Source of the DNA: Amoebophrya sp. A120
Taxonomy: Eukaryota > Protista > Dinoflagellata
NCBI GenBank assembly: GCA_905178155.1
Contig: CAJINV010000002.1
Coordinates: forward strand, 1,981,216-2,045,215
Length of the DNA: 64,000 bases
Direction: 5' to 3'
Part shown: one piece after another, positions 777 to 64,000 of the stretch
Numbering within the stretch: position 1 is the first letter of the stretch
How the letters are laid out: each line of letters opens with the position of its first letter
Notes under the pieces: model-generated
The model's database searches: none
The model's input: only the letters and a program-made list of their open reading frames with translations
Told to the model about the DNA's origin: nothing
Position numbers and translations under genes: made by a program

Positions 777-3700
777 TGCACGTACTGGTTCCATTTCGTT
801 TTTTTCTCGTACACGGAAGCAACTTTCACGTTCGGAAACTCGTTCCAATTTAAGGTGAATCCACAGTACGGCCCGAGTTTTTTCTTTCCCGGGAAAACCT
901 TCTTGTTGTTCAACAGCTCGTAGTCCTCTTCTGTGAAAAACGTGTACGCTATGAGAGTGCACAACTCCCCCTCCCCCTCATTTGTATAGCATGAGGAACA
1001 ACAGAAGCAATGCCAAAAATGTAGCCTTTGCATGAGAAATCCGTAAATGGAATGTAGTCCTATTTGGGGGTGCAAAACTTGTCATGCACAGAGTGCTTAA
1101 AGGCAAGCGCAAGGTGTGAGGTAGGTATTTTGCATGACAAATGAGGGGGAGGGGGAGTTGTGCACCGTCATATACGTCCACCCGATCCCGACCTTCTCGA
1201 TCAGTTTGTTGTTGTGAATCAAAGGGATCAAAGACCGCATAAACGGCGCGGGCTTTTGCGGAATGTTTGTGGCTACTTGCTGTGGTGACCCAGGTTGTTT
1301 CGGCGATAAAACAGGCGAAGACAGCGGTTGTTGCGGTCCTGTTTTCAGCATCTCGATTAAGTTTTGCAAACCGGAATTCTCCAAAACCTCCTCCCTTTCC
1401 GATTTCTTCCCGGCTAAGAGCCCGTTATTTTCCAAGAACTTCAGCGCTTCTAACTGTTGTAGATGAGTCGCTAGCAGTTCCTTCTTCCCCTCTAGACTCG
1501 GTCGGTGTTCCTGGGGTAAAACGGTTGTAGGGACTACCGTATTATTCTCCTTCTTTCGCATGTTTTGGAGGAAGTTGTCGCCGACATACTCCAGCAAGGC
1601 GCTGTTCATCGCGTAGAAGTCGTGCGGGACTTATCCACAAAAAAAGACCCGCCATCCCCATCCAGTTTCCCAGGCAAAACATGCATCAGAGCCAGTGCCT
1701 GCCATGCAAAAAATGGATGGGAATGGGTGTTTTTTCCTGGATAGAACTGGACGGGTTGGATCATCGTGGAGCTCAGGATGGTGGCCAAAGATGCGGTTGC
1801 CGAAGAAGCCTGGAGAGGTGGTACTGGAAGAACTTTGAGTTGCTGCTTGTCCTCTTGGGTCGGCACCATTTTTATCGCCTGGTAGCAACCCAAGAACTTC
1901 CTCCACGTCGTGAATGAAATTCTCTGCCGCAACTTCCACGTCGTAGACGAGACCCTCCTGGTTTTCTTGTCCTGCGGCGGAGTAGGCGTTAGACGCTGCA
2001 GCAACGGAAGTAGATCTTCCGCCACCTCGTTCCTTGAAACCCATCATGCCCTCCGGCATCCCCGACATCTTCATGTTTTTCATCAAGGAGGACTTGTTTG
2101 TTTCCTGGAAGTTTTATCCTGTGCAAAAGTATCGTCCTAGTATGAATTGTATATACAAATTCGCTCAGCATTACAAATTAAATCTGTAATGCGGATTTAC
2201 TTTGGCGACTAGATTTGTAATGCAGAAGTGCAATTACAATGAGTACGAGTACGATACTTTTGCGATGCATAAGTTCGCCGTCGTCGCCATAAACGTCACA
2301 TTCTTCGGCTTTTTCAAATCCGGAATGGCCGGGTCCTTCTCTGGTTTTTTGTCTCCGACCCCAACAGAATGCAAAAAGTTCGCCATGTTCGTGGTAAACC
2401 CGGCCATTGCCGCGTACTCATCCGCCTCGAGATCCTCCACAAACTCCGCCGCCGATTTTTCGAAGTCGAAGTCCTTGTGGAGATTGAAGGATTTCGCTTT
2501 GGCAATGTACTCCCTGTACGCGTTTCTCATCTCCTCATCCAAAACCGATTCCGGCACATTCATCTGCTCCTCCATGATACGCAACAAAGACAAATCGTGC
2601 TCATCCGGAACGTATCAACTGCAAATATGCCTGGCTCTGGTAGATTGCGAAACTTGTCATGCTAGTCTGCCATAACTCTGAACTCTGTATTGCGTGGCCG
2701 CGAAGTAGAGCTCCTCACTCTTGCCTGTCATACAAAAACGCAGTTTCTCATGCGGAGTACGCAACTCAGAACCACAGAAATAAAACTTGTCATGCTGGGC
2801 AGCGCATTACAATGTGCTCACTATTCCCTTCCTTGCATCACAAATTTATTCGAGACCCAGACATATTTCTTGCTGCACTGGATAGCACGTACCCCGGGTT
2901 CGTCGCGATTTTCCGCAGTGTTTCCTTCATGTCGTGCACTAAATCGGAGAGTTGATACAACCTGGAATAATTCTCAAGCCGGTTTTTCCGCAACGCCCAA
3001 TACTGGTTCTCCTTCTCCTGCTGCTTCGCGATCTCCAATTCCGATTTTACCCTTTCCTGCTCCGCTAAGATGTCCTGCTGCGCGTCGAATTCCGCTAGCA
3101 TCGACGCAGTGACGGTGCCGAGCTCGAACGCCTCCTCGATTTTTTTTCTTTCAATAATCCGGTTCATTTTCCTCGCCGTTTCCCCCAAGCCGTGGGAAAG
3201 TTTCACACCGGCGTTCTTCAGCGTGAAGTATGCAATGCAAAAGTTGTATCGCACTGAGTACAAATCGCATGACAAACTTTTCCATCATGAACAAAAACGA
3301 AATTTGAATTTTCCATGCTGGTTTGGGTAGATAATTGGATTTGTCATGCATGACTGGAATTATTACTACGAGTACGATCCTTCTTTCAATTCATATGAAA
3401 ACCGACATGTCGATCCCGTCTTTCCGAAACAGCACATCTTGCGGTGGAAGTTGGCCGCGGAAATCTTTACCTTTTTTACTGTGAAGCGCTTTCCGCTTCT
3501 GCAGGTACTTGATCAATGCGACGTCGTGGGCTAACAGATTTGCCCTCGCTTGCTGCGAGGATAAAGCGCTGTAGCCGAGAGTGTCGGATTTGGTCACAAC
3601 CGCGGTGATCGGGTCTCTATTTCGGGTTTTCTTTATTGTCCCACTTCCACCAGCGATCTTCGGGGATGAATCATCATCTGGTGCCGTTGCTCTCGGTGAT

Positions 3701-4946
3701 AAAACGCCGGCGACACCGCGGTAGGGGAAGGGGAGGTTATCGTAGTCAATCGGCGGGACCTGTTGCTCGATCGCGGTGTTGGGTGGTAGATCTTCCTGCT
3801 CGGCGAGGTTCACGGAAAGGATCGGGCTGGCTAAAGAGAATTTACCGTTAAACCGTTCCGCTCGGTCGCGCTCCCACCTGATAAAATTTTCGAAGCAACA
3901 TCATCAAAAGTTGTGATGCAGAACCACATGCGAGACAAAGACAGTAAGTAGAGTCTCAGTCTGTCATGCTGCATGCGAATTGTCTCAAATGACTTCCATA
4001 CTGTTCCAGCTGCTTGATGATCGCGGGTATCCGCATCAACGAATTCTGCTGCGCTTGTACTCTCGCTTCGTGCTTCGTCAACTTCTTGTCCAGCTCGTGC
4101 AACCGCACCGCCGCCGGCTTGACATGCAACCGATCATCCTCGTCAAACGCGTTTTTCAGCGCATTATTCACCGGCTTCGCCAAAATTTTCGGCCGCCCGG
4201 TAACCGGGTCGATCCCCCGGGATTCGAAGTGCGTGGCCTGCTCCTGGAGCTCGAAAAACTTCTGGATTTTCGGGTACAGATCCGCAGGACGCTGTCGGCG
4301 ACCGCGCTCTCCTCCTCGGCTTGTAGGCGACAAATCGAGTTCGAACTCGAAGAAGTTGCTGTCGTCCTCATTGACACTACTGGGGTCGAAGTCGTAACGC
4401 GGACCCGGTGGTGGGCCGATCCTCGAAGAGGAAGCAGGCGAGGTCGCTGTAGCTCCGTGGCCTTTTGTAAAAACGTTATCCCGTCGGTAGTAGGGGTCCA
4501 AGTCCCCGTGTTGGATCGCCGCAGCGAGGTCGGCGTTGTGGGACGAAGAGGCATGATCACCAGAACCGCCGCGGCTGCGCGCCTGGCCGTAGTTCTGTTT
4601 TGGCTCCACGTACCCTCTCGGTTTGTGTGCCGGTCCGTAGACCTGATCCGGGTGCTCGTCGTCCTCGTCATCTTCGTCTTATGCATTGCAAAAGTAGAAG
4701 TACTTCCCGTACCCGTAGTAACTGCGTTAATGCATCACAAATCTGGTTTCCGAGGGGATTCACAATGACAAATTCCATTTGATGTAAGTACTAGTCATGC
4801 TGACGAAATTTGTAATGCAAATCCAAATACCGCTACTGCTAGTACGATACTTTTGCATTGCATACATCTTCCTCTTCCAATTCTGCGAGAATTTGCTGTT
4901 CAGCGGACTGTGTGTTCCCGGAAAGGATGCCTTGAAGGAAGTTCAT
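777..4946 (-). CDS. Gene A, multi-exon hypothetical protein (3' end not recovered); starts MNFLQGILSG
   Basis: ATG at 4946. ORFs 3956-4609, 3391-3813, 2838-3275, 2234-2593, 1631-2086, 1097-1609 and 746-1075 join in frame after removing six TIR elements (each plus 5 nt) and one GT-AG intron (3878-4001). Confidence 0.8.
950..1172. mobile_element. Introner, family 4
   Basis: TIR tatgagagtgcacaactccccctccccctcatttg; TSD tacgc/tacgt; removing 228 nt gives ...GWTYTFF... Confidence 0.9.
1632..1743. mobile_element. Introner, family 5
   Basis: tatccacaaaaaaag...ttttttcctggata; TSD ggact/gaact; removing 117 nt keeps the frame. Confidence 0.85.
2115..2271. mobile_element. Introner, family 2
   Basis: tatcctgtgcaaaagtatcgt...acgatacttttgcgatgcata; TSD agttt/agttc. 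Confidence 0.9.
2613..2884. mobile_element. Introner, family 1 (diverged)
   Basis: tatcaactgcaaatatgcctggctctgg...gacccagacata...ggata; TSD gaacg/gcacg; removing 277 nt corrects the frame offset between the ORFs. Confidence 0.85.
3229..3395. mobile_element. Introner, family 2 (diverged)
   Basis: tatgcaatgcaaaag...acgagtacgatcc...tcata; TSD tgaag/tgaaa; frame restored. Confidence 0.8.
3878..4001 (-). other. Canonical GT-AG intron carrying introner-type motifs
   Basis: Minus strand gtatgg...ttttatcag; 124 nt restores the frame; contains ttgtgatgca and ctgtcatgct. Confidence 0.75.
4680..4864. mobile_element. Introner, family 2
   Basis: tatgcattgcaaaagta...tacttttgcattgcata; TSD cgtct/catct. 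Confidence 0.9.
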
Positions 4947-5596: not shown

Positions 5597-8500
5597 TCAG
5601 CACATCCCACAACACCTGGCCCTCCCTGCGACACTCCTTTCGTAGTGCTGCTTCGTCACCCTTTTCAGTGCCGTCTCCGCCATCCCGCGCCACACGAGAA
5701 AAACGAATTTATCCTTTTCCAGAAAGCTGACTTCGATCGACAACACCTTCTGCATTTGCTTCTGATTTTGGTACACATCCCACAATCCCGCAAGAGCGTG
5801 CGCCGCCGCAACGTCTTTATCAAAATGCCTGCCCCCGCTCCCGATCGCCGGCGCTCCCACCCGGATGATGTCTTGTTTCTTCGGTTGGTTCCTCGCTTTC
5901 TCCTCTTTACTCATCGCCTTCACCGTTTGGATACCGGTTTCCTGCTCTTGCCCGTCCGCACCGACGATGAATCTCGGACTCGGTTCTGGTGTTGGGAGTG
6001 GTGAAGGATCATTTGACGGCACTGGCGAATTTCTTGGGCTGGGCCTCGGTGATTTCGAATTTTTTCTTTCAACCACCGCCTGTCGGTTCGCTATTAACGA
6101 TTGTGATTCGATCTCCAGTAGCGCGTGCGTCATCACGCAGCGCCAAACCTTCCTGACCGACAACTTCGCTTCGTCCACCGTTTTCGCGTTATGCAGTGCA
6201 AAAGTATCGCACTCGTATAAATGCATTACAAATTTCCTCAGCATGAGAAATGAAATTTGTAATGCTACATTTTTGCCTTAAGAACAAGATTTGTAATGCA
6301 TGATTGCAATACGAGTACGATACTTTTGCACAGGATACGCGTAGTCTTCCGCGGATTTCTGAATCAGCCTTTTGTACATAAAATGCTCATCCGCGTTCCG
6401 TTTCATCTATGAAAGCCTCAGAATGGAAATCCTCAACGTGGAAATAATTTGTGATGCATGAAATGCGACGCGGGCGCGGCAAAAAAGACTGTATTGCAGA
6501 GGACGCAAAAATGAAGGCCGACTATTGCCCTTCTACGTGTCAAGAATTGGAGTGCTGATTTTTAGCACCAGAGGAGGGCACCCCTTTGCGTTAACCAGCA
6601 TGACAGGCATGCTTTGAGTGCAGCAAGAGAAATTTGTCATGCGCCGCCTAGAAGTGGCGCTTCAACTGGAATGCTTTTCTGCATTACAAACTATTTCCAC
6701 TTTGAGGATTTCCAACCTGAGGCTTTCATATCATCTTCAACAAATCCTCATCGGAAAACGGGAATCGCGGGACGTGGACGTGTAAGATGTACCGCGTTCT
6801 CAGTCCCGGGTGGTTCAACACGTAGGATAAATCGTGGTCCTTATCGTTATCCCGGCCTATCTGCTCGTGCACCTTCGTGTGGAAATTCACGCCAGTATGG
6901 ATGTGCCAGAGTTGAAATCGACAAAGTTGAAATAATATGTCATGCATAAAATGGATGCCAGTTGGAACCCAGTTTCCAAGTAGCGCATGACAAATCTCGG
7001 CGGTCCCTAAATCCAGTTTGTCATGCTGTTTAGGCAAAGAGGAGCGATTTTCTCATGCTACTTTAGCAGCTCGAGCTGTAACCCTAAACAGGCTTACAAT
7101 CGGCCTCACTTGCCTGCTCTGCAACACACGTGCCTCGGGTCATGCATTTTATGCATTACGGATTATTTCAACTTTGACGATTTCAAACCTGACGCTTCCA
7201 TAGCCAGAAATGTGCCCGTATTTTTCGTCATAGAGTAAGGATGAAGGCACTTCTATCCTGAGTAAAAACGTACCCACGCCAGAGTTGTAATGCAGATTTT
7301 TTTTTTTTTTTTTCATTGGGCCCCACGCCAGAGCTTCAGTTTCAGTTTCAGATTTGCGCTTTCCGGTCTATTTCCGCCGGGGGTTGCGCCGTGTACAGCA
7401 GGTCGACACTGCCAGGAAAATCGATGTGCGCGCCGCATTGGTCCATACAAAGCAAAACCCTAAACCCGTCGGAAACATAAATCCGCATGCATACAGGGGG
7501 GTCACCCCTGAACCCTTTCGAACTTGGACCGGACACACGCATGGAAAATCCCCACGATATAGTTAACGTCTATAGCCGTAAGCCGCGGCGGACGTTGCTA
7601 TGCTGTGGGACGAATAGCAAGGGGGGTCGATATGGGTCGAGACTAAGCGCGATGTGCAGAAAGCCGCTGCACCTGACGGTAGTAAAGATAGGGAGGAGAC
7701 CACTGCGTATGGAGATAGTTGCGCTTAGTGCGCGCTAATCGGGATCTGTGTAAACGCGGATACTGGGAACGCCCTATGCAAACGGGTTTTGCAAACCCGC
7801 GTTTGAAAAACCCAGCGGGAAACACGACCGAACCCCCGGCCATCGATGCATGGCGCGGAAAACATACAGAAACGAACCATGCGGGGTGCCCCCGCGACGA
7901 ACTTTTTTCGCGCGCTACTGTCCCCCGAAATAAACGGTCTGCTGATCTCAGATACTAGCCATAGGGTGCGACCAAGCCAAACGCCAATAATAGAAACCGC
8001 GCACCCTGACGAAGAACCTTTAGACGAAACCCGTAAGCCGCGGGCAATAAAGTTAATTTTTCAAAACTACTCCGGATGCATGTGCAGCTTCAGCCGATGG
8101 CGAACGGTTGGTCGCGATGAAATTTTCAATCTACGAAAAAAATATTTGTAAGTGGTCTCCTTTGGGGCGGGGCCGTTGAACCCACGATGAGGGGGGGCGG
8201 GGACCGTTGAGCCCCGGATTGTACCAGAGTTGTAATGCAGATTTGCAAAGACAGGAAGACTTGTAATGCGCATCCCCATGAGAGCCATTTCCAATCGTGT
8301 TTTGGAATTTGTGATGCTGTGAACAGGATGAGCAGATGAATCTGCGATGCGGCTGCACTTGCTAACCTGCACTACACTGCATAGTGCAACTTGTCATGCG
8401 TGACTCACAAAACTCCTAGGCTTGTGTTGCAGAATCCCCATCCTGACTCTGGTGTGGGTACGTTTTTACTCAGGATAACTTCGGTTTGCAACAACTCACC

Positions 8501-11174
8501 CGGCCGCAATCGGTACATGTCGTTGTACTTGTGGTAGCCGAATTCCCGCGCTTCGGGAAACGCTCTGTCATCATCGTCATCGAGAGAAGCGCGCTTCTTC
8601 TTCGCAGCAGCAGAAGAAGTTGTATCTGTGGTCGCAGCTGCACTGGTGGCGATTGATTCAAAAAATTTCGCCTGGGCGGAGGTTTTGGTCAAAGCATTGT
8701 CTCTTCCGCCGAAGAGGTTGAAGACAGACGAGGTTTTCCTCTGCAACTTCGGCTCATAGCCATTCGGATCCTCATCGACCATCTCCGGCGCGGTCGCGCG
8801 GTGCTTTCCCTCCGCGGCTAATTGCTTGTTCTGCAAGAAATTGCTTTGCACCGCAGAACTCGCTCCAAGAACGGAGGGCAAAGCTTGGGCTATCCAGGAA
8901 AAAAAGTGTGTAAGTGTAACTTTCTTTGAGAAACAGCATCACAAATTTGCTCTACATGACAGAGAAAACCTGTCATGCGTGGCTTGTAAGGGAAAACACA
9001 CACGAAAAGAGGACTTCGTGGCTGTCTGGCATGACAGGTGTAACTCTGTTGCATGTTCTGCAACACAAATTTACACTTACACAGTTTTATTTTTCTTGCA
9101 TATGGGCGGCTGGGTTTGTATTGCTCGTTCTCGGTTGCCCAGACCTATCAAATGTAAAAATGTCTGGGTCTGGAGGATTTCTTGACTTGTCATTCATATT
9201 TTCCATGACCCATGATGTCTGTGATGCATGCCGTAGCATCACAGATTTTGTGAGGGCTTCCTGATGCCTATACCGCATGACAAATGCTCTTTCCGTGTAG
9301 CAAAACTTGGACTATCTTTGCTGCTCATGCAAAAATACATATTTTTTTAGAATCCAAAATCAGCATGAGAAGTTCCATTCTTCCAGACCCAGACATTTTT
9401 ACATTTGATAAGACCTCTCACTGGACGACTGCTGGGAGCGTTCGGAACGATTGCTTGGAGTGCGAGAACGAATGGATCTTGGACTTGGAGTGAGTAATGT
9501 GCTTTCACTATCCTGAGTAAAAACGTCCCCACACCAGAGTTGTAATGCAGATTTGCAAAGACAGGAAGACTTGTAATGCACATCCCCATAAAAGCCGTTT
9601 CCAATCGTGTATTCGAATTTGTGATGCTGTGAAGAGGATGAGCAGATGAATCTGTGATGCGGCTGCACTTGCTAACCTGCACTACACTGCGGAGTGCAAC
9701 TTGTCATGCGTGACTCCCAAAACTCCTAGGTTTGTGTTGCAAAATCCCCATCCTGACTCTGGTGTGGGTACGTTTTTACTCAGGATATTCACCACCACCG
9801 CCGCCTTTCGGTGACCCGGAGATTCGCGGGGAACCCGCTGGCGATTTTGACGGGCCCCTTCGCGGCCCCTCGCCGGGAAGTGCCAGAGTCCCAGACCGTT
9901 TCTTCTGCGCAGAAAATCGCTTGTCTTCATTCACTCCGCCGGTCAGAACCCTTGTGTTGTCCTTGTACCTTGCAACCGCGTCGTTCAAATCCTGAGCGGC
10001 CCCACTGGCGTGCGACCCAGACGGGGTGTGGATCTCTCCTCTTGGTGATTTCGACACAGAGCGTTCTGTCGAGATTTGATGTGCTCGCTGATTCTGCTTC
10101 GATTGATGTGCTATCAAATGCAAAAATGTCTGGGTCTGAAATGTTGCTGGGTTTGTCATGCAGATTTTGAATGGCCCATGATGTCTGTGATGCATGCCCT
10201 AGCGTCACAGATTTTTAGAGGACTTTGTGACGCCTCTACCGCATGAGAAATGCCCTCTCCACGTAGCACAAACTGGAGTCCTTTTCCTGGTCATGCAATA
10301 CAAATTTTTTTAGAATCCAGAGACAGCATTACAAGTTTAGAATCGTCCAGACCCAGACATTTTTGCATTTGATATGTGCACCTCCCCCTCCTCCTCTGGG
10401 CGTCAATTTCGGTGCGGTTAAAGGCACGGGGGAGTTAAACCTCGGTTTCGACCGATCCACGATTTTTCCGAACTTATCCCGGAAAATCACGCTATCCAAA
10501 TTCTTCCTGGTCTGCCGGTTTTGCGCTTCGCGATGGCGATCCATCTGCTTCTTATCCTCGTCCTTACTCGTTTGCCGCATTTGCGCGACCAGCTCCATTT
10601 CGGGCTGATACCGGCCGTTGTCGAGTAATTGGTCTTCCGGCTCGTTGAGGGCTGCAACGGACGCGGTTCGCCGGATCATTGTGCCATCGGTAGCTTCCCC
10701 TGCGTGGCCAGCACCATTTGAATTTTGGCCTGCTTCACCAAACCCGAGCATCTTCTCCCGCATCCTCCTGTTCATCAGAGCTTGTTGGGTCAAAAGCATC
10801 AAATCGTCTTCCGCTTCAGCTCCAGCAGACAACAACCGGTTCCGCGCGATGCACATCTCATGTAAAGTTGCGTCAAACCCTCTGTGTTGCTCATCGCGCC
10901 AGCAGGAGGCGTGGCGAACCCCCTGGAGACAGGGGTTTGTGCTGGTTACCAAGTAATCCCCGTCGAAATCCCGGAGGTCGTGGTTTAGTTTTAAAACGAG
11001 GAACATTTTGAGATTCTGCTTTTGGTCCTTCTTCTTGTTGCTTTCTCCCGTGCTATTGTTTCCATGGCTATCGAGTTCGTGTTGCTCTTGCAGATGCCGG
11101 GTCGCGCGGCCGCCAAGTGCGGAGAACTCGAAGTAGACGTATTGGTCCTTGCCTTTAGATGAATTCGCGGACAT
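5597..11174 (-). CDS. Gene B, 9-exon hypothetical protein (MSANSSKGKDQYVYFEF...RCCGMC)
   Basis: ATG at 11174, stop at 5597. All 9 exons are in frame after removing 8 TIR elements plus one TSD each; checked exon by exon, including small exons EVPSSLLYDEKYGHISG and MKRNADEHFMYKRLIQKSAEDYA. Confidence 0.85.
6190..6337. mobile_element. Introner, family 2
   Basis: tatgcagtgcaaaagtatcg...cgatacttttgcacaggata; perfect TSD cgcgt. Confidence 0.95.
6408..6730. mobile_element. Introner, family 7
   Basis: Long TIR tatgaaagcctcagaatggaaatcctcaacgtggaaata; perfect TSD tcatc. Confidence 0.95.
6896..7202. mobile_element. Introner, family 7-related
   Basis: tatggatgtgccagagttgaaatcgacaaagttgaaataat...attatttcaactttgacgatttcaaacctgacgcttccata; perfect TSD gccag. 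Confidence 0.9.
7254..8477. mobile_element. Introner, family 3, with nested retro-insertion
   Basis: TIR tatcctgagtaaaaacgtacccac; perfect TSD acttc; colinear with the intact copy 9509-9787 apart from the insert. Confidence 0.92.
7297..8223 (-). mobile_element. Non-coding poly(A)-tailed retroposon (SINE-like)
   Basis: T17 at 7297-7313; 21-bp TSD ccagagttgtaatgcagattt at 7279-7299 and 8224-8244; (ctgaaa)n repeats before the tail; no credible ORF. Confidence 0.85.
8891..9102. mobile_element. Introner, family 6
   Basis: tatccaggaaaaaaagtgtgtaagtgtaa...ttacacttacacag...tcttgcata; perfect TSD tgggc. Confidence 0.92.
9146..9410. mobile_element. Introner, family 1
   Basis: Perfect TIR tatcaaatgtaaaaatgtctgggtctgga; perfect TSD agacc. 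Confidence 0.96.
9509..9787. mobile_element. Introner, family 3
   Basis: TIR tatcctgagtaaaaacgt; perfect TSD ttcac. Confidence 0.96.
10112..10374. mobile_element. Introner, family 1
   Basis: TIR tatcaaatgcaaaaatgtctgggtctg; perfect TSD tgtgc. Confidence 0.96.
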
Positions 11175-22866: not shown

Positions 22867-22999
22867 TATGCGACGCAAAAAGATCTCGATTTTGCACCAA
22901 TAACAATCCAAAAGCGCTGCCAAAAAGCAAAGGAGGACTTTATGCAAATTTGTCATGCAAGGCGCTATTGGTGCAATGCGAGATTTTTTCACTTTGATA
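22867..22999. mobile_element. Introner-like TIR element inside an apparently captured gene fragment
   Basis: tatgcgacgcaaaaagatctcgattttgcaccaata pairs with tattggtgcaatgcgagattttttcactttgata; internal ttgtcatgca; no clear TSD. Confidence 0.6.
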
Positions 23000-30300: not shown

Positions 30301-32214
30301 TGGAGGTACTGCTCGAAGCTGTTTAATTTCCTCTCAAACCGTATCACAGAAAAAAGTGTTAACGCTAACGAAATTTGTAATGCAGTGACGCATCACATCA
30401 AAACACGCCCCAATTTGTCATGCATAGCATGCATATTAGGCAAAATCTGTTATGCGTGACTGCATTCTGTGCAAAGAAACTGTTAGGGTTAACACTTTTT
30501 TGTTTGATAAACCGCTCCCAGTCTTCTTTTTCCCTCTCCTCTTTCGACAGGCGTTCTTTCTTCCTCTGTATGCAATACAAATTTCCTGTACGTGTACAAA
30601 ACGCATCACAAATGTCACCAACTTGGAGCATGCTACTTGTCATGCTGAATAGAAACGAAGGAAACTTTTGTCATGCAGAAACCGCATCTGTACATGTACA
30701 GGAAATTTAGGGGGGGTAATCTGTTCGACTTTTTCGTCGTACTTCGAGTCGTCGCTGTCGATGGAGAGAGAGCTGCTGTCGGAGGGAAATAAAAGCCGGC
30801 GTTTCTTTTTCTTTTTCTCCAAAACTACTGCTAAATCCTCCGCCATGTTGATTTTTCCTTCCTGCACAAAAATTTTCTCCTCCTCATTCTTCTTCATTGT
30901 TGCTGCGAGCCGCTCAATCCGCTTCTGGTTCACGCCCTGCTCATCCTGGGCTTCACTACCTTCTTTGAAACCGAACGCGGCGTCTAGCTGGGCGAGGAAG
31001 GTCACGTGGTTCTTCTCGTTACTGGCGGTTGTATTCTTGCCGCGCTTGGCAGTAGTAGTAGAGGTGGTTACAGCCTTCGCTTTTGGTTTTGCTTTTCCTT
31101 TTGCTTTGGTATTCATCATTTTTCGCTGCTTCTTGTTCGTATCCAAAAGAAAGTCATCATCAACATCATCATCAACGTCGTCATCTTCATCCATCCCCAT
31201 CGCCTTTCGTGCAAGCGCATCTTCGGCAAAAGCGTCGTCTCCCAGGGCGCCAAGAACCTGGGCGAGATCTTCATCGTCTGGACGATCGGTTCTTGCACCA
31301 GAGGCCAGCAGCAGGGGCTTGTCTCTGGTGTTCTTCCCTCCCGCGGCTTGTGTTTTCGCGGCGGAGCGCTTGTTTGATATCGCACTTGATGGGCCACGAC
31401 GTGCAGACCCGGCAGCAGCGGTTTTCGACGATTTGCTTCCACCTCCTACTCGCCCAACAGGAACAAAGCCACGTGTAACATTTTCATCGTCCGCATGCTG
31501 GTCGTCTACCGGGAAAAAATCGTCCGTGTCGTTGAGTTTTAGTTGCGGTTCATCCGCTTGGTCTTCTACCTCCGAAGACGTTGACTTTTCCAACTGGTTG
31601 AGCAGAAACTGTTCTTCTAAAGGATTCAGTTTTATTCGCTTCTTACTGAAATTCGCAGCTGTTGTCTTTCTTGTTGCGGCAGCGGAAGATACAGGAGCTT
31701 TACTCCTCGTTGTAGCCTTCGGCCTAGCACTGGCTTTTGCATTTGCTTTGCTTGAGCTTGATGGGACCGCGTCTACTTTTGATGATGATGAAGATAGAGC
31801 CTTGGCTGTTCTTGCACGCTGAGAAGCTTCTGCAACAGGTCGAGGAGCTGCTGCAGCTGCGGCTTTCGCTTGTGCACCTCGAGCAGCCTTTCCCCTTGAT
31901 GCTGAAGCAGGAGCGGACTTTTTGCCCTTCATGGAAGAAGATCTACTACTTGCGGCGCTGGTATTGTAGTTCCCTTGAGCAGCTTCAGCTTTTGGTTTGA
32001 CAGATACGTCAGCATGATCAATGCCATCTGCAGTGCTCTTGCCACTTCGCGGTTCTCGCGCAGAACAGTTCATGCTTTGATTTGTCGTTGGTGCCCGTGC
32101 CGTGATTCTGTTGACGGCCGCTCCAGGCGGGCGCTTACTAGACGAGGAGGAGGAGGCCTGCATCTTTGAAGTGGCAGTGGGTGGCTTACGATTACTAGTG
32201 GTCGGCTCTCTCAT
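24392..32214 (-). CDS. Gene D, 5-exon very large Lys/Glu/Ser-rich coiled-coil hypothetical protein
   Basis: ORFs 30640-32289, exon 30510-30568, 29661-30347, 25700-29710 and 24392-25696 join in frame after removing 4 TIR elements; start ATG uncertain. Confidence 0.8.
25529..25898. mobile_element. Introner, family 1, with ~107-bp nested insert
   Basis: Perfect TSD tccac; extra sequence between two gacttg copies (25567-25572, 25674-25679), starting with (ggtt)n. Confidence 0.9.
29546..29691. mobile_element. Introner, family 2
   Basis: tatgcattgcaaaagtatcgta...tacgatactgttgcattgcata; TSD ccttt/ccctt. Confidence 0.9.
30342..30509. mobile_element. Introner, family 6-related
   Basis: tatcacagaaaaaagtgttaac...gttaacacttttttgtttgata; perfect TSD aaccg. 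Confidence 0.92.
30569..30718. mobile_element. Introner, family 8
   Basis: tatgcaatacaaatttcctgtacgtgtaca...tgtacatgtacaggaaattt...ta; TSD ctctg/atctg; frame restored. Confidence 0.8.
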
Positions 32215-42456: not shown

Positions 42457-45400
42457 CTACCCCACAACGACGTTCCCACCACCGCCCCTACTTCTCGTCA
42501 CGGACCTAGCCCGCTTCATGTTCTTAAGAATCTCATCTGCAGACGGCATTTCAATCGGCTTTTGTTTTCTCCACGCAGGAGGCTTCTTCGCTGTACCTCC
42601 TGCTCCCGGAGCTGTAGTTGACGTGTTTGTTGTTCTGGGCGACACATGATCCTGCTGTGCGGAAATCGCAACGCCGGCCGCTGAAGCCAGCACCGCAGAT
42701 TTGTCAACCACGTCAACCGCAAAATGTGGTTTTGGTCGTGGTTCTCTACTGGCAGCTGCTCGTCCCCTCTTCTTCGTGACAGAATCATCAAGTGGTGGTC
42801 CATCGCCTGCCATCACACCAGCACTCGTGTTCAAATTGTTGTTCATCCCCTTGACAACGTTCCCACCTCCGCCAAGAAGATGTTGAACTCCACCACCACC
42901 CCCATTCTGTTTAATCGCCCCGGTGAAAACCCTATTCGGTTCCCTACTCGGCAATCCCATCTCCTTCCGCATCTGTTTTTGCTTCTCAAACTCCTGGTAC
43001 GCTTTCAACGACTTCGGAAACGGACAAGTTTCGTCCTTGTCTTCCCGTAGGTATTCCGGAATTTCCTCCGGCTCACGGATGTCGGGCAGGATGAAATTCC
43101 CGTTTTGATTCACCACCGGTTCGATCCCCGAAGTGGACTCGTCGTCGTCGTCGGAAAAGTTGTTGTCAACATGCTGGACAGCATGTTGAACCTGTTTGGC
43201 CTTCTGCCTTTCTCTTCCTCGTGCAGAAACGGCATGATCCACCCCGTACTCCTCCTGTTCCTCGTACTGCAACAATTCTCCCAGTTCACAAGGCAGTGGC
43301 GGGGGCTTTTTCTGGTAATTTTGATGGTTATTCACTGCTCTGCTACTCGACGCGTTCGACCTCGCGCTGTGGATTCTGCTGTTGTTTTGGCTGTGAAGAT
43401 TTGATGTTCCGCCTGCTCGTAAAGGCACTGGCAGGACAGCTTTCTCGTGACTGCTGATATTCCGAAGATTCGTTCCCTGGATGAGGTTATCAAGTGCAAA
43501 AGTGTCTGGGTCTGGAAGACTGCACGTTTGTCATGCTTGTCTGGCATGACTCTTGAATCTGTCATGCGCGTTACGCAAGAGCTCCATTTTTCTGCCATGC
43601 GGAAACGCAGTTTGTCATACAGAATAGGCAACACTTAGAAGCTCAGAAACTTGTCATGCTGAGTCAGCACCTGTGGCCTCATCATGATACGCCACCCAGC
43701 ATCACAAGTTTCCAGACCCAGACATACTTGCTATGCATAGAGGTTTTTGTTCGAAATTTTGTTGCTCGGTTCTTGTCCACCACCACCCGCTCCCGCAACG
43801 ATCGCCCGGGCGGCTTGCTGGATTGCCCGTTTGTCTTTGTTATGCTGTTGGGGTGCGCCACCAGCACCGCTGCGGCCCGAGCTGGGACGACTTGAGACTG
43901 TGCTGTGGATATTAGTACCAGCCTGAAGCAGTTTCGATCTGGGCGTCGGCCGGTTACTGTAGGAGTTGGAAGTGTTGATGCTACTGAAGCTCTTTGGCTG
44001 GATTTGCTTCACAGGCTGAAGATTTTTGCTCGCTGGTGCAGGTGCCACAGGAGGAACAGCTTGTACAACGTCAGACGAGGTTCTCATCTTTTGCAAATCC
44101 TCCTCATCCAAGAACGGATTCACGGCACCGATGATCTCAAAATCGTCGCTTTGCTGGAAGAAAAGTTGGTCTTCTTCCTGATTTCTCCCGGAAATGTTCG
44201 TATTTACGACGACTTTCGTCACGTCTACTGGAAGATTCTCGGTCGGAGAGCGCGCTTTATTGTTGTTCAGCACGCGTGCAGGTGCACTAGGCCTTGCGTT
44301 TTGCTGCTTGTGCTGGTTATTTACGTTGTCGCGCATACGTGGCGCTGTTGCCCTGGCATTGGCGTACCGATCGCGACGAGCAGCAGGTGCTGCAGAAGAG
44401 CCGGTGGAAGCTGCAGAAACACCGTTCCCAGCTGTAGTAGACGACGTTGTTCCTGACACAGAAACAGAAACTCCCGGGGTCGAAAGAGGTTCGTATGCAT
44501 CAGCGTCGGCGTCCTCCTGACCACCAGCTGCATAAACACCTCCTCGTAGTTGCGACGAGCCTGCTTTCTGGTTTCCACCGCCTCCTGTTGTCAAATGCGA
44601 GTACTGTTTTCTGGCCCTCTTCAACCTTTCAATCCGTTCTTGTTCCTCCCGGTCTCTTCTCATCTTCTCTTCCCACTCCTGTTTCTGCTTCGTTTCCAAA
44701 ATTTCCCGCGACCGCTCGATTGCCAATCGCTGTGCTTCTGATAGTAATTCAGATTTCAAATTTCCCATCAATTCGTCCTGTTCTCGTTTCTGTTCCATTT
44801 CGATCAATTTCTGCTCCTTTTCCTGCTTCTGCTTCAGTTTCTGTTCCAACACTCTTTCCCGCGTTTTCTCCTGCAAAATTCTCGCTTTTTCCTCAAATTT
44901 CTCCTTCTGCAACTGCTCTTCCAGCTTTTCTTTTCTTTCCTTCTCCAGTTGCTCCTGCTTCTCCCGCTTTTTGCGTTCTAGGACTCTTTGCTTGGATTCC
45001 TGCTGGGTGGTGAGAACGATTCGGTCAGGGTCGTTGAGAGATTCCTTGCGGAGTCGGTCGAGTTCTAACTTTTCCTCCTCTTGCTGTTTCTGCTCCCGTT
45101 TCTGACGGTCGATGTCAAGAACCTGATTTGATTTTGATGTACGTGTAAGGAGCATTCGTATGCCGCATCAATTCAGCAACATCCCAATTTCGCATCACAA
45201 AGCTGAGGCCCATGCTGCAACCGCATGACAAACAGAATCACAATCATGATCATCTCTTTACCCTCTTCCGCGTCATCTCCTGTAACCGCACAACCTTCTC
45301 GTCTTCGATTTCGATCAGCGGTTGCTGCTGGTCTGCAATTGCAGCTCCGTTACTGTTGTGATGTGCCGGCATCGATGATGCGGTCATGCCCGTGCGGAAT

Positions 45401-49210: not shown

Positions 49211-49738
49211 CACAATTCAAACAAATTTTCACATTTGCAACTCATACGCAACATGACATCCCTCAGCCCCATCCTCATCTCACTCCCAATCCAGAAGCTA
49301 GCGCTGCCTTTTGTCGCTACGCAAAACTAAAGAAAACGCGTCTACTCATTGCTGTGTGTAAGTACGAGATACACGACTTACGTCTTACTCACATCACACA
49401 CACGCATCACATCTGCAAAGACTTCCACTCCTACGACCAACGCGAACACGGAACTGCAGTTCTTCTTCTCCCACTTCAAGGTTCAGCAGGATCTTCGATA
49501 AATTGCAAACAACAGAAAAATGATTTGTACTGGGATGAAAAGCCACAAGAGTCTCGTTGTTTCTTGATGGCATTGCTAGAATTTGATATCATAATCGCAA
49601 TCGGGGATTATCAGTGTGCGTATGACGGCAGTAACGTGCCCAACCCCTAACTTACCCATGGGGGATAAAAAAAAAAATTTCGGTTTATCTTATATAGATA
49701 ATATAGATATTTATATAAGATACCTAGTTGAAATAGAT

Positions 49739-51690
49739 ATATAATTTCACCTTCTCTGCGCAATTCACCCATAGAGTGAACGCGCGCGCAACCAACGGAA
49801 GCGAATGACGTGCAGAAGTAGCGCGTCGCAGTGATAGTCGCAAGACCTCGAGCGACAGTCACAATGGCAGCTAAGAGAGAACCCGGCCGGCACAACGAGC
49901 TACGGGTAGCAGGCCATGCAAGCCAGGCTCTCGACCCCCACAGAGCCATGCCCCGGACATAGAGGTGGCCCAAGCCGCGAGACGCGACTGGGACCGCCGA
50001 ATATCTAGGGCGGGCTTGCGAGGGGTGCCGCAAGGGGTCTCGCGACCTCAAGTCGGGTGGGAGGGTGGGAAAAAACGCAAAATCTAGGCGAGCCAAGACA
50101 ATGCGGTATTTCTGGAAAAAGGACAGAGACCCAGCCGAAGCTGGTCGACACCGGGCAGCCAGCCCGGTGTCGGAGTGTGCAACCCTCTTGCTTGATCATG
50201 TGAACTGATATAATCGCTACGCGACGCATATAATTTCACCTTCTCTGCGCAATTCACCCATAGAGTGAACGCGCGCGCAACCAACGGAAGCGAATGACGT
50301 GCAGAAGCGCGTCGCAGTGATAGTCGCAAGACCTCGAGCGACAGTCACAATGGCAGCCAAGAGAGAACCCGGCCGGCACAACGAGCTACGGGTAGCAGGC
50401 CATGCAAGCCAGGCTCTCGACCCCCACAGAGCCATGCCCCGGACATAGAGGTGGCCCAAGCCGCGAGGCGCGACTGGGACCGCCGAATATCTAGGGCGGG
50501 CTTGCGAGGGGTGCCGCAAGGGGTCTCGCGACCTCAAGTCGGGTGGGAGGGTGGGAAAAAACGCAAAATCTAGGCGAGCCAAGACAATGCGGTATTTCTG
50601 GAAAAAGGACAGAGACCCAGCCGAAGCTGGTCGACACCGGGCAGCCAGCCCGGTGTCGGAGTGTGCAACCCTCTTGCTTGATCATGTGAACTGATATAAT
50701 CGCTACGCGACGCATATAATTTCACCTTCTCTGCGCAATTCACCCATAGAGTGAACGCGCGCGCAACCAACGGAAGCGAATGACGTGCAGAAGCGCGTCG
50801 CAGTGATAGTCGCAAGACCTCGAGCGACAGTCACAATGGCAGCCAAGAGAGAACCCGGCCGGCACAACGAGCTACGGGTAGCAGGCCATGCAAGCCAGGC
50901 TCTCGACCCCCACAGAGCCATGCCCCGGACATAGAGGTGGCCCAAGCCGCGAGGCGCGACTGGGACCGCCGAATATCTAGGGCGGGCTTGCGAGGGGTGC
51001 CGCAAGGGGTCTCGCGACCTCAAGTCGGGTGGGAGGGTGGGAAAAAACGCAAAATCTAGGCGAGCCAAGACAATGCGGTATTTCTGGAAAAAGGACAGAG
51101 ACCCAGCCGAAGCTGGTCGACACCGGGCAGCCAGCCCGGTGTCGGAGTGTGCAACCCTCTTGCTTGATCATGTGAACTGATATAATCGCTACGCGACGCA
51201 TATAATTTCACCTTCTCTGCGCAATTCACCCATAGAGTGAACGCGCGCGCAACCAACGGAAGCGAATGACGTGCAGAAGCGCGTCGCAGTGATAGTCGCA
51301 AGACCTCGAGCGACAGTCACAATGGCAGCCAAGAGAGAACCCGGCCGGCACAACGAGCTACGGGTAGCAGGCCATGCAAGCCAGGCTCTCGACCCCCACA
51401 GAGCCATGCCCCGGACATAGAGGTGGCCCAAGCCGCGAGGCGCGACTGGGACCGCCGAATATCTAGGGCGGGCTTGCGAGGGGTGCCGCAAGGGGTCTCG
51501 CGACCTCAAGTCGGGTGGGAGGGTGGGAAAAAACGCAAAATCTAGGCGAGCCAAGACAATGCGGTATTTCTGGAAAAAGGACAGAGACCCAGCCGAAGCT
51601 GGTCGACACCGGGCAGCCAGCCCGGTGTCGGAGTGTGCAACCCTCTTGCTTGATCATGTGAACTGATATAATCGCTACGCGACGCATATA
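49739..51690. repeat. Four near-identical tandem units of 486 bp (first 489 bp), each joined at atata
   Basis: Units start atataatttcaccttc at 49739, 50228, 50714 and 51200; the ORF track repeats with a 486-bp period. Confidence 0.97.
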
Positions 51691-51706
51691 AGATCAGTAG
51701 CTAGAA

Positions 51707-51826
51707 AAGGCGTTTTTGAAGGCTTCCACGACGCTACTCCGCCGACATCCAGCTCCACGGATTCGCCCGAATCCGTGGAGCTGGATGTCGGCGGAGTAGC
51801 GTCGTGGAAGCCTTCAAAAACGCCTT
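51707..51826. repeat. Perfect palindrome, 59-bp arms with a 2-nt spacer
   Basis: aaggcgtttttgaaggc...ccacggattcg-cc-cgaatccgtgg...gccttcaaaaacgcctt. Confidence 0.97.
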
Positions 51827-52001
51827 ATATACATAAGCTATTAAGCTAACTAAAAACAAAGCATTTTCACTAGCTAGTTCGGTTCAGTTCAGTTCGACGC
51901 ATTATCCTGTTTCAGTTAACCGCTCTGAAATTAATCGATTGAATCGTGGATGTGCGTGCACTACTATCATCTTCTTTTCCTTCCAGGGGTGTAAGGCTCG
52001 T

Positions 52002-53396
52002 CTATCGCAACACAAAAGTTCCGTCGTTTTCCCGTACGAACCACACCCCTGCTACGTTCATTTCTTCCTTTCCTGAGTTTTCGCAGAAATAGACGTCACT
52101 GACTTCGAAAGCCACCTCTGGGTCCCCTTCCACCTCCCACTGCCCCGGCCTACTCGTTGAAGCTCTCCACTTTTTTCCTGAAAGTTTTTCTACAAGAGCT
52201 GCAGCAGCTTCAGCTTGTTCAGCTTTCTGTTGTTCGAGCCGAAGGCGCCTCTCCTCAAGCATTTTCTCCGCCTTTTTCGACCGCTTTCCCCGCTCGGGCC
52301 CTTTCTTCTTTTGCTCCCTTCTCCCAGTGGCGTAGGGCCGTCGCCGTGTCAGCGTTTCCCTTGTGGCCGCGCCCGTTGGCTTTTGTGCCACCAAGTCGTC
52401 GAGGCTGAAGTTGTAAAACTCGAGGTCTTCTGCGGCTTTGCGGCCCCATGGCGTTTTTTCCTGGATTTCTGTCCTGACACGGGACAAAGAACCCTCCCCG
52501 GTTGTGTCCCGTGCTGTGTGTGCGATCCAGGATATCCGTTTTTCCCGAAGCTCTACTTCGATAGCCTGGACCCCAAGCATGCGGCACATCTGGTCGCGGG
52601 AAGGCGCGCCCTGCCAATCCCAATAACCGAGGATGTGGCGCAGCACCTGGGTCTGAAAGCTCCGAAGGATCTTCTCGTCTTCTTCCGAAGTCGCCCAGGT
52701 TTCGGCGTTGTACAGGGCGACGCTTAGCGACAACGCGCGGTAGAGCCCTGCCTTGAGGTGTTTCGGTACTTCTTTGTCGCGCCAGATTTTTGTCAACGAC
52801 TTAACTGTGCTCAGCGCCATCGCGCATCGCCTTTTCGTTTCGGACGTAGTCGTTGCATTCCGGTCGATTTCTGTGCCCAAGTACACAAAACGCTCCACCG
52901 TGGCTATTTGCTTCCCACCATGCCATACGTGAACAGGCTCCGCCACCGCTGCCGCCTTTTCGCTTTTCTTCTTTCCCTCTACCTGTCTGGCCACCCGTAG
53001 GGTTCTCTGTTCCTGTATGGTTTTGTCCTTGCGGCAGAACCCGGTGGCCAGGTGGTACTTCAGCGCGGTGGCATCCTCCAACACATCGCCGCACCTCGGG
53101 CAACGGTGCTGGTTGTGTTTCTCGAGGATGTACTCCCGGCGGCCTAGCCTCGTGATCCGCATGGCCCTGCCGTTGTCGAGCGTGGCCCACCCGGATGCCT
53201 TCATCTTGATGATGTTGAGGAGTCCGTTGTCCCACACGGCAAGGTGGGTGGGGACCAAGTCCCCCATCAGCTTCGTTGACACCGCTGCCGCGGCAGCGCG
53301 GTATTCTCGAACCAGGTCGATGCCGTCCCATTCCACGAGGAACCCATGGACTGCCTTGGCCCCCTCTTCTTCGCTGATCATGCACCGCTCTGTCAT
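52002..53396 (-). CDS. C-terminal part of an RTE-like non-LTR retrotransposon protein (C2H2-like zinc finger plus RT domain 7/thumb), 5'-truncated but open (464 aa)
   Basis: VERFVYLGTEID...ETKRRCAMA...LTKIWRDK...KAGLYRAL...LYNAETW...FQTQVLRHILG is typical of the RTE-clade C-terminus; CPRCGDVLEDATALKYH; no YxDD or endonuclease; (gaact)n tail at 51876-51895. Confidence 0.85.
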   Translation of the reverse strand: MTERCMISEEEGAKAVHGFLVEWDGIDLVREYRAAAAAVSTKLMGDLVPTHLAVWDNGLLNIIKMKASGWATLDNGRAMRITRLGRREYILEKHNQHRCPRCGDVLEDATALKYHLATGFCRKDKTIQEQRTLRVARQVEGKKKSEKAAAVAEPVHVWHGGKQIATVERFVYLGTEIDRNATTTSETKRRCAMALSTVKSLTKIWRDKEVPKHLKAGLYRALSLSVALYNAETWATSEEDEKILRSFQTQVLRHILGYWDWQGAPSRDQMCRMLGVQAIEVELREKRISWIAHTARDTTGEGSLSRVRTEIQEKTPWGRKAAEDLEFYNFSLDDLVAQKPTGAATRETLTRRRPYATGRREQKKKGPERGKRSKKAEKMLEERRLRLEQQKAEQAEAAAALVEKLSGKKWRASTSRPGQWEVEGDPEVAFEVSDVYFCENSGKEEMNVAGVWFVRENDGTFVLR

Positions 53397-53817
53397 CGCA
53401 ATTTAATATATAACTACCTTATTTACACCGAAAAAAAAAAACTGTATCCCTTTGGGTAACTAGCCTGTTGGGCACGTTACTGCCGTCATAGTGCGCTACA
53501 TGTTTTTACTAAAACTGGGTACGAATAAACAGGTCGAGGTGGCGTTCGTCATCTTCTGACTCAAATCAAACTTCAACTTGGTCATTGCAATACTGGGTGT
53601 GGGTCGTGGTCGATGAAGTTGTTCAAACGAAAAAAAATGCAACATAATTTGAAAGAGTAAGAGAAAGAATGAGATTCCAAAAAAAAAAGAATACAAAAAT
53701 GTGCTAGATGAATTTGTTTTGATGTACTGAGGTACTCGTACTACTGATAAAAAAGGTAGGACCAACGAACTAGGAGTACGAGTACTTCTGCTCTGCACCC
53801 TTGAATAAACAAGAACT

Positions 53818-63500: not shown

Positions 63501-64000
63501 GGTCCAGTGTTTGCTGCTGCATCGCGGCAAAAGAGCCGGAAAAACCGAGGTTGTTTTGATCGTTTGTCCCACCTTCCAGTTCCTGCTCCGCATCAGAACT
63601 TTGACTTCCTGCGAAAGTTACGTGCTTTTTCCCATGGACTTGATCGTCCTGGCCTGTGTTCCGTGTACCAACCACCGGGATTTTTCTCTTCCCCCCCGTC
63701 TTCGAATTCACCCGGTAGTATCCACAGAAAAAAACCCATCCCCATCCAATTTGTCATGCAAAACAAAGACAAACATCAGAAACAGTGTTAGTTTGTCATG
63801 CCAAAATTGGATGGTTATGGTTTTTTTTTGTGGATAGGTAGACGGAATTCTCAATCCCAGGGAAATAGATGTTGTTTTCGTTCTCCACCGAATTCGGCGC
63901 CGTGTCCGGATCCACGTAGAACGGATAGAGGAAGTGTTCGTTTAAATCCAGAAAAGCTGGCGCATTTAACGAGAGCTGGTTGTTCTGATTGTTCTTGCTA
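60582..64000 (-). CDS. Gene H (5' end beyond window), hypothetical protein with beta-strand-rich blocks
   Basis: Open exon 63837-64000, ORF 62575-63711 and ORF 60582-61259 join in frame after removing 63719-63836 (+5) and 61265-62722 (+7), giving ...TDEEMNPEE... Confidence 0.75.
61265..62722. mobile_element. Large TIR-bounded intron with 7-bp direct repeat and GC-rich interior
   Basis: catacttaaaaaattc near the left end is the inverse of gaattttttaagtatg near the right end, within a longer imperfect TIR; flanked by atctctt on both sides. Confidence 0.75.
61770..62160. repeat. ~3 imperfect tandem units of ~119 bp
   Basis: Repeated gcgcgcgaaaatgcgc...ccataaactt...cttaga.tgc..ggcatg...tatgttc. 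Confidence 0.85.
63719..63836. mobile_element. Introner, family 5
   Basis: tatccacagaaaaaaacccatc...atggtttttttttgtggata; perfect TSD ggtag. Confidence 0.95.

Follow-up and report, generated by a model that had tools for sequence, protein, structure and literature searches.

The motif TGTNATGC/GCATNACA (longer consensus AAAYYTGTVATGCD) appears to be a conserved, strand-independent tandem site, usually present as two copies 31-33 bp apart, which is carried by the introners of Amoebophrya sp. A120 and by a minority of short GT-AG introns. Its enrichment, tandem spacing, conservation, two-way use and survival in introns without terminal inverted repeats (TIR) or target duplications (TSD) were all observed. 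With a probability of about 0.5, it acts as double-stranded DNA that a putative host protein likely binds, helping to define these introns, and we infer for it a role in splicing.

In the window, that is, the whole stretch of 64,000 nucleotides analysed, 108 exact motif matches were found against 7.25 ± 2.7 expected (100 dinucleotide shuffles), and 99 of them were located in the 38 annotated introns. The density was 11-12.5 per kb in introns, versus 0.16 per kb in both exons and intergenic DNA, an intron enrichment of about 75-fold. At least one exact match was present in 36 of the 38 introns and at least two in 34, in both orientations, as an earlier note on this DNA had described for a motif shared across introns and usually repeated within each element. 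The same note had called the motif rare in the long exons; this holds relative to the introns, but the five exact matches in 30.5 kb of exons are about the chance level, with no depletion. The motif was limited to introns and element-derived DNA; outside the elements its density was 0.07 matches per kb for exons and 0.28 for non-coding DNA. Viral contigs yielded no TIR match and eight isolated motif-pair matches (2-4 motifs per locus), which were regarded as chance. The motif may resemble words known for Sox-Oct, ApiAP2 (TGCATGCA) or RBFOX. The elements of the window were as follows.

950..1172, minus strand: introner with TAT..ATA ends, TATGAGAGTGCACA family; also 14778-15015; two motifs and one, respectively.
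1632..1743, minus strand: short introner, TATCCACA family, with one-mismatch motifs only; also 13878-14017 and 63719-63836, with two motifs each.
2115..2271, minus strand: introner, ~150-nt TATGCATTGCAAAAGTATCG family; other copies at 3229-3395, 4680-4864, 6190-6337, 20422-20571, 29546-29691 and 53900-54053; two to three motifs in each copy.
2613..2884, minus strand: introner, ~265-nt ...TGTCTGGGTCTGG family; other copies at 9146-9410, 10112-10374, 14383-14662, 17605-17872, 25529-25898, 36609-36876, 38456-38721 and 43488-43739; two to four motifs in each copy.
6190..6337, minus strand: introner that contigs of putative RNA runs skip along with one of its 5-nt TSD copies, 153 nt in all; joint 6184-6338.
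6408..6730, minus strand: introner, TATGAAAGCCTCAG family; also 6896-7202; four and three motifs; both skipped in putative RNA contigs.
7254..8477, minus strand: introner, TATCCTGAGTAAAA family, motifs all in one direction; also 9509-9787 and 54368-54646; the first copy has a 941-nt motif-free insert inside and is skipped as a whole (1229 nt) in putative RNA contigs.
8891..9102, minus strand: introner, TATCCAGGAAAAAAAGTG family; also 20633-20861; three and two motifs.
30342..30509, minus strand: introner TATCACAGAAAAAAG; four motifs.
30569..30718, minus strand: introner, TATGCAATACAAATTT family, second end decayed; also 36995-37149 and 54802-55027; three, two and two motifs.
49621..53490, no strand assigned: control element without an exact motif; TAT..ATA ends, perfect 24-bp TIR, TSD GTGCG.

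Introner ends of the form TAT…ATA and a 5-bp target duplication were common to all families, and most of the 32 window elements and of the family consensus ends started with TAT, seven variable nucleotides and AAA, a few families deviating to TAT-N7-ACA or TAT-N7-CAG. The TSD matched at all five positions in 326 of the 438 copies found by homology and at four in 68. Removal at non-GT-AG boundaries was indicated by eight joints, in contigs of putative RNA runs, that skip the element plus about 5 nt, and eight long ORFs were restored when window elements were taken out; in run X8, a set of raw RNA reads labelled as this species, matches were to repeats only. Over 465 aa, a LINE-derived ORF of the window showed 100% identity with a portion of an A120-named protein. 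In TIRs, junction repeats, families, non-GT-AG removal and co-oriented genes, these elements resemble, and most likely are, the A120 introners, described in the text of Farhat et al. 2021 (PMC7789003) and Gozashti et al. 2025 (PMC12130899) as non-canonical introns whose TIRs start with TAT, 7 nt and AAA, with short direct repeats of 3-5 nt at the junctions.

The comparison was extended to a sample of 0.54 Mb of related loci, in which 336 of 345 introners held an exact motif. Clustering of 376 introner copies gave 16 clusters of repeated families, and the motif was present in all 12 multi-copy clusters and in 13 of the 16 overall, so the enrichment persisted after families were collapsed. These families are not independent of one another: at a BLAST coverage of 25%, 289 of the 376 copies fell into a single cluster, and the shared ends and duplications described above contradict the unrelated TIRs of the earlier note. 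Its idea of a family-independent intron-definition signal is partly supported: the enrichment holds across the multi-copy clusters, but the families are related and most GT-AG introns lack the motif.

The motif lay internally, 30-80 bp in from the introner ends; for sites that face inward, the distance to an end was mostly 31-34 or 40-44 bp. Its unit was a same-direction pair about 31-33 bp apart, a spacing that, like the longer consensus, the earlier note had not mentioned; with one mismatch allowed and a relaxed spacing of 30-34 bp, such a pair was found in 320 of the 376 introners. Any general 10-11 bp periodicity of the spacing was weak: among six tests, it appeared in inward distances (p = 0.009) and S..A spacings (p = 0.009) and was absent from outward distances (p = 0.98) and from same-direction spacings after removal of those of 31-33 bp (p = 0.36). 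Of the genic introners, 134 were inserted in one element orientation and 121 in the other, and this two-way insertion extended to families with motifs in a single direction.

Within introner families the motif changed at about 0.35-0.39 times the rate of its flanks, with 192 changes at its fixed positions versus 552 expected; hence it does not diverge as fast as its neighbours, an outcome that the earlier note had named as a refutation. The same ratio was 1.10 at the N position of the motif and 0.91 at TIR positions 4-14. Per site, change was 0.029 in the motif versus 0.073 in matched control windows (0.032 versus 0.098 with the bait family left out), and the two RNA readings were conserved alike (0.026 and 0.034). 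Changes were skewed (G1>C in 23/41, T2>C in 31/33), and G6 was changed in only 8 of 942. A "singleton allele" measure (motif 0.0094, control 0.0093) was set aside, because variable columns in large families rarely yield singletons, which deflated the control. A strand-specific splicing signal, such as a branch point or an RNA-binding site, would require one orientation and a fixed distance to the 3' splice site on the RNA; it was rejected, as each end has the two readings close by and their conservation is similar.

The terminal rate of the motif (2.9%) was no lower than the 2.2% implied by TSD mismatches, and the age-linked motif ratio was 0.59 (95% interval -0.07 to 2.7). Copies without any remaining motif were not depleted (5 versus 6.4, 3 versus 3.6 and 2 versus 0.7 expected), and introners able to use a GT or AG boundary did not have fewer motifs, giving no sign of relaxed constraint. 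Copies labelled as non-coding carried 2.95 motifs versus 2.99, and their motif loss (2/19 versus 8/269) was not significantly different (p = 0.14). Neutral decay of the motif once the element is immobile is compatible with the introner copies, but not with seven intact pairs in GT-AG introns that have no TIR. The GT-AG introns of the window, all predicted from sequence, are listed below.

3878..4001, minus strand: GT-AG intron, 124 nt; two motifs at a spacing of 50 bp; neither TIR nor TSD; ORF restored.
36095..36246, minus strand: GT-AG intron, 152 nt; not named in the earlier note; no exact motif, two one-mismatch sites.
36337..36433, minus strand: GT-AG intron, 97 nt; motif pair 36372..36411 (starts 36372 and 36404, 32 bp apart); the RNA reads GCAUGACA twice.
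37324..37469, minus strand: GT-AG intron, 146 nt; one exact motif.
37769..37919, minus strand: GT-AG intron, 151 nt; motif pair 37844..37883, 32 bp apart.
45123..45261, minus strand: GT-AG intron, 139 nt; motif pair 45192..45230, 31 bp apart, in the opposite RNA orientation (UGUNAUGC twice).

The five of these that had been named as motif carriers have GT..AG on the minus strand, restore long ORFs on removal, and hold 2, 2, 1, 2 and 2 exact matches. The claim that nearly all introns, GT-AG ones included, bear the motif failed, and it is not a universal intron-definition signal: besides 36095-36246, 47 of the 57 high-confidence GT-AG introns predicted in the related loci, called without use of the motif, had no exact match, and 54 had no relaxed pair. 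The ten with an exact match compare with 1.4 in shuffles, and three had the relaxed pair. Motif-bearing GT-AG introns were shorter (median ~130 versus 180 nt, p = 0.0004), and seven of the eight with at least two motifs had a 31-33 bp pair, versus 0.46 expected.

In the 16 motif-bearing GT-AG introns the TIR score (of 20) was 6.1, compared with 5.3 in motif-free introns and 16.6 in introners, and the TSD match was 2.06 of 5 versus a background of 2.0. Seven kept an intact exact pair although neither inverted repeats nor a target duplication could be traced in them, and they had no close homologues among the 64. Since TIR and TSD are at background, neutral relics should rarely keep the pair; the expectation is at most 0.15-1.1 of 64 introns (35-25% decay). 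The pairs tended, weakly, to lie at an introner-like distance from the splice site (6/7 versus 3.3 expected, p = 0.04). A few motif-bearing GT-AG introns resembled short introner families beyond motif-preserving controls (for example L056, 20.3 versus 14.3 bits, and L027, 20.6 versus 15.3). No convincing Pfam family was found for 12 window ORF pieces and no homologue for a host gene exon from the window, so gene conservation cannot separate old from new introns.

The motif could instead be purely a transposase subterminal binding site, with one trans-acting enzyme that moves every TAT..ATA family and depends on internal sites in tandem, inserted copies that decay neutrally, and motif-bearing GT-AG introns that are old introners. 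This is rather unlikely, even with the MITE-like anatomy, the repetition of the motif near element ends and its conservation within families, the precedent of transposases binding MITE subterminal repeats (PMC1636448, as far as its consulted parts go), the similarity of motif and TSD-implied rates, the unpurged copies that lost every motif, the likeness of L056 and L027 to introners, and the many GT-AG introns without a motif all agreeing with it. Against it stand the seven introns that kept the exact pair, as well as the young element at 49621-53490, which shares the terminal trinucleotide and the length of the TSD with the introners and is motif-free, a single example possibly moved by another enzyme. 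That element lies beyond any annotated coding region and carries a truncated LINE piece, and its TIR had no match in related loci; motif-free and outside coding sequence, it counts for the host-protein reading. Moreover, the five TAT..ATA elements of more than 600 bp yielded neither a transposase nor an autonomous copy, judged by ORF length and a search with one ORF. Counted against the host-protein reading are the 47 GT-AG introns without an exact match and the 54 without a relaxed pair, the terminal rate, age-linked ratio and undepleted motif-less copies given above, the undiminished motif number in introners able to use a GT or AG boundary, and the equally motif-rich non-coding copies.

A host DNA site might also leave splice-site choice untouched and act on chromatin, by placing histone or DVNP particles, or on transcription, by making the polymerase pause or read through. 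The same DNA-level evidence, strand independence and helical spacing, speaks for it, together with the shortness of motif-bearing GT-AG introns, but the confinement of the motif to introns and element DNA and, weakly, the splice-site distances of the GT-AG pairs make it improbable. An RNA element, either formed by pairing of the motif with its complement inside the intron or recognised by RNA-binding proteins, is more doubtful still. In predicted folds of 97 sampled introners, 90 of 263 motifs paired with another motif, and motif bases were paired at 0.78 versus a background of 0.64. However, exact copies occurred in a single orientation in 110 of 366 motif-bearing introners and in all 16 motif-bearing GT-AG introns (both orientations in 256 and none, respectively), the copies of the conserved unit are arranged directly instead of inverted, neither RNA reading is used more than the other, and a single protein would need to read two unlike RNA words. 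Of the two forms considered in the earlier note, self-pairing RNA was therefore not supported, and the double-stranded DNA site was favoured.

Short repeated motifs near element ends are also known from hAT and CACTA transposons, as subterminal repeats. In the consulted parts of the report on Emigrant/Lemi1 (PMC1636448), the transposase-binding repeats of MITEs are likewise short, internal, repeated near the ends, in either orientation and better conserved than their flanks; unlike them, the motif described here is common to many families, persists in GT-AG introns without TIR or TSD, and has no known cognate transposase. The nonconventional introns of Euglena (PMC12501133) and the MITE-derived introns of Fritillaria (reviewed in PMC11282704), so far as these sources were consulted, are similarly mostly non-GT-AG, with complementary ends and transposon-like anatomy, but the Euglena signature is strand-specific and sits at the paired intron ends, whereas the Amoebophrya motif is internal, tandem and strand-independent. 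The text of the A120 papers (PMC7789003, PMC12130899) deals with termini, direct repeats and an end hairpin, to which the window adds the internal motif, its tandem spacing and its sharing with GT-AG introns; no description of the motif was found in the literature searched, which for A120 covered text passages of these papers.

Under the favoured reading, a host protein would recognise the motif as double-stranded DNA and help to define the intron while it is transcribed. With three helical turns between them, two sites would face the same side of the helix, so that a dimer or a two-domain DNA-binding protein would occupy both. The bound protein may recruit or pace the spliceosome, and paired TIRs would bring the RNA ends together. 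Insertions without the site would stay unspliced in coding sequence and be purged, so that every successful family would carry it, and spare copies would allow single sites to decay. The host-protein reading leaves room for the motif to have begun as a transposase site or to serve as one in addition.

U1 snRNA went undetected in Amoebophrya, and Farhat et al. 2021 (PMC7789003), in the text consulted, leave open by what means its tens of thousands of introns without common splice dinucleotides are removed. A shared, conserved and spaced internal site offers a bait for pull-down experiments and predicts effects on intron retention that can be tested. Should it prove to be a transposase site, it provides a route to the enzyme behind the TAT..ATA families; if it is a host site, it would be a strand-independent, DNA-level intron mark. 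Tentatively, and with more doubt than assurance, A120 may define most of its introns on DNA and not on RNA, with a protein that recognises the sequence, which might be a transposase domain taken over by the host, binding the tandem three-turn site in either orientation and handing the nascent transcript to a U1-less spliceosome. If this were true, any TAT..ATA transposon with the site would turn into an intron immediately, regardless of the place and direction of its insertion.

The motif TGTNATGC, searched on both strands, had 108 exact matches in the window against 7.25 expected. Introners, the transposon-like introns with TAT…ATA ends, a terminal inverted repeat (TIR) and a 5-bp target duplication (TSD), held 90/108 of them (12.5 per kb), and ordinary-boundary GT-AG introns 9/108 (11.1 per kb); exons (n = 5/108) and intergenic DNA (n = 4/108) each had 0.16 per kb. 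At least one exact motif was present in 36/38 window introns and at least two in 34/38, while introner 1632-1743 and GT-AG intron 36095-36246, the latter overlooked in the earlier note, were motif-free by exact match and carried one-mismatch sites. The context of the window matches gave the longer consensus AAAYYTGTVATGCD, in which N was T in just 3/108 and the following base was C in 3/108. Spacing was 31 or 32 nt in 17 of the 52 same-direction pairs lying within 150 nt. In the region of 22915-22960, 23925-23965 and 22775-22815, an isolated full AAATTTGTCATGCA site was observed at 22951, outside annotated introns, with a short duplication close by.

The window DNA is eukaryotic, with every annotated gene on the minus strand, and eight ORFs of 433-2,322 aa were restored once 32 TAT…ATA elements, each with one TSD copy, and six GT-AG introns were removed. 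In contigs of presumed RNA origin, eight consecutive elements of gene 5597-11174 were skipped, each skip exceeding its element by about 5 nt. Introner 7254-8477 was skipped in these putative RNA contigs together with its 941-nt insert (7290-8230), an insert that had no match elsewhere in the window or related loci. The element termini match the A120 introners described in the text of PMC7789003 (TAT and at least three A, separated by seven variable bases), where U1 snRNA was undetected and the splicing mechanism is described as open. The introners themselves are already known; no mention of the internal motif was found in main-text passages or the supplement text of Farhat 2021 (PMC7789003), in passages and supplements of Gozashti 2025, in passages of the Roy preprint, or in openly searchable literature, including passages of reviews and other papers. 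The window also contains intergenic GC-rich blocks (up to 68%) upstream of genes (32300-34100, 39600-42400 and 46600-49600), with no second copy in the window or loci data, a 119-bp tandem repeat (3.1 copies, 61783-62154) and, near its start, 11-12-bp microrepeats in inverted arrangement (240-303 and 660-724).

Related loci outside the window were obtained by TIR pattern from one metagenome assembly (n = 153, 0.54 Mb once merged), and their elements matched those of the window at 76-94%. An element finder blind to the motif, which made 0 calls in shuffled sequence and recovered 23/32 window elements, called 345 loci elements, of which 336 had the exact motif. Together with 31 window copies, these 376 elements grouped into 16 clusters when 50% coverage was required and into 9 at 25%. 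The largest cluster, of 183 copies, was the bait family used to fetch the loci and is over-sampled. Enrichment persisted after families were collapsed, all 12 multi-copy clusters being motif-bearing; the exact motif was absent from three singletons, which do have one-mismatch sites. With one mismatch allowed, a same-direction pair 30-34 bp apart was present in 320/376 elements. At the family level, inward-facing motifs lay mostly 31-34 or 40-44 bp from a TAT end, and a broader 10-bp periodicity of positions was only weakly supported. A 111-nt TAT…ATA intron at L017 1639-1749 is nearly one long palindrome, without an exact motif.

One intergenic element of the window had no exact motif and two one-mismatch sites, both deep inside:

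49621-53490, between genes: TAT…ATA element, TIR perfect over 24 bp, 5-bp TSD GTGCG
49739-51691, inside the element: four 486-bp tandem repeats
52005-53399, minus strand: LINE ORF, with 100% identity across 465 aa to part of a protein annotated as Amoebophrya sp. A120

The ORF, part of a 5'-truncated LINE piece, matches the C-terminal part of a 1298-aa reverse transcriptase plus endonuclease protein. This single example suggests that TAT…ATA ends can move without the motif if splicing from coding sequence is not needed; the element may also use a different enzyme from the other TAT…ATA elements.

Substitutions were compared in 350 copies, each against its two nearest neighbours. The motif did not diverge as fast as neighbouring bases: its fixed positions changed 192 times where matched bases predicted 552 (0.35), an effect significant in 7/9 families. 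Ratios were 1.10 at N, 0.79 at YY and 0.91 at TIR positions 4-14. Motif change was 0.029 vs 0.073 in matched seven-of-eight control windows (0.032 vs 0.098 with the bait family left out), and pair spacing was altered in 8/91 cases vs 16.5% for control intervals. The changes were concentrated in TCT, TGC and ACGC variants, a pattern that would be expected of tolerated binding variants. This slow change does not tell selection during transposition apart from post-insertion selection, since transposition steps outside the sample are hidden in the terminal branches. With TSD mismatches as the insertion-age clock (363/438 homology-found copies kept), the motif changed at 2.9%, no slower than the 2.2% implied by the TSD; the age-linked ratio was 0.59 (-0.07 to 2.7), and copies with all motifs lost were not depleted; G6 alone was clearly below the TSD rate (8/942 changed, p = 0.001).

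GT-AG introns were predicted in the loci with a gene finder built without any motif term, which on four held-out window genes called 5/6 GT-AG introns exactly and one with a wrong acceptor, with some false calls. The 252 GT/GC-AG introns predicted in 58 loci of at least 2 kb were reduced to 116 by requiring obligatory removal and coding flanks, and to 57 by keeping those of 90-350 nt that had a GTA donor, a YAG acceptor and no homology to elements. The exact motif occurred in 10/57 (shuffle mean 1.4) and a relaxed pair in 3/57. The earlier claim that the motif marks nearly all introns did not hold for GT-AG introns of the loci; the window, with 5/6 GT-AG introns motif-bearing, was unrepresentative (p = 0.002), partly through length, the motif being present in 5/13 loci introns up to 150 nt vs 5/44 longer ones.

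Adding the six window introns and L066, included by hand despite its AAG acceptor, gave 64 GT-AG introns, eight with two or more motifs; seven of these eight had the same-direction 31-33-bp pair (0.46 expected; 6/7 with L066 excluded), reading in RNA four one way and three the opposite. The 16 motif-bearing GT-AG introns, all of them predictions, had no TIR (6.1/20, vs 5.3 in motif-free introns and 16.6 in introners), no TSD signal (2.06 vs 2.0 of 5) and no close mutual similarity. Compared with motif-preserving shuffles, L056, L027 and L008 clearly scored higher against introner profiles and a few others did so marginally; most did not.

In the window and loci, GT-AG donors were GTA, mostly GTAT, as if a G preceded the TAT of an introner. 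These introns open with 20 T-rich nt, close with 20 A-rich nt and lack a polypyrimidine tract; their ends could pair with polarity opposite to that of introners (TAT-N7-AAAA…TTTT-N7-ATA). TSD-derived G bases before TAT and after ATA make some introners read GTAT…ATAG (gene-finder coordinates):

L058 1802, plus strand: GTAT…ATAG introner
L003 4179, minus strand: GTAT…ATAG introner
L017 10305, minus strand: GTAT…ATAG introner

Judged by their boundaries, these are a putative direct path from introner to canonical intron.

A site serving the transposase only would match the element anatomy and the near-neutral loss of motifs after insertion. The pairs in TIR-less GT-AG introns speak against it, and we regard it as a rather doubtful explanation. 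An RNA element is quite improbable: introner families lay either way round in genes (134 and 121 copies), and the motif was similarly conserved in both RNA readings. Predicted folds paired 90/263 motifs with another motif, but exact copies faced one way only in 110/366 motif-bearing introners and in 16/16 motif-bearing GT-AG introns. Helix geometry makes a putative double-stranded DNA site the best reading of a direct pair that is spaced by three helical turns and indifferent to strand. A chromatin or elongation role for such a site appears unlikely. We favour, with a probability of about 0.5, a candidate host DNA-binding protein, since pairs stay intact in TIR-less introns and the motif is strand-independent and confined to introns. 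The origin proposed in the earlier note, a transposase site co-opted later, is compatible with this reading, under which the protein would mark motif-bearing introns for co-transcriptional splicing.
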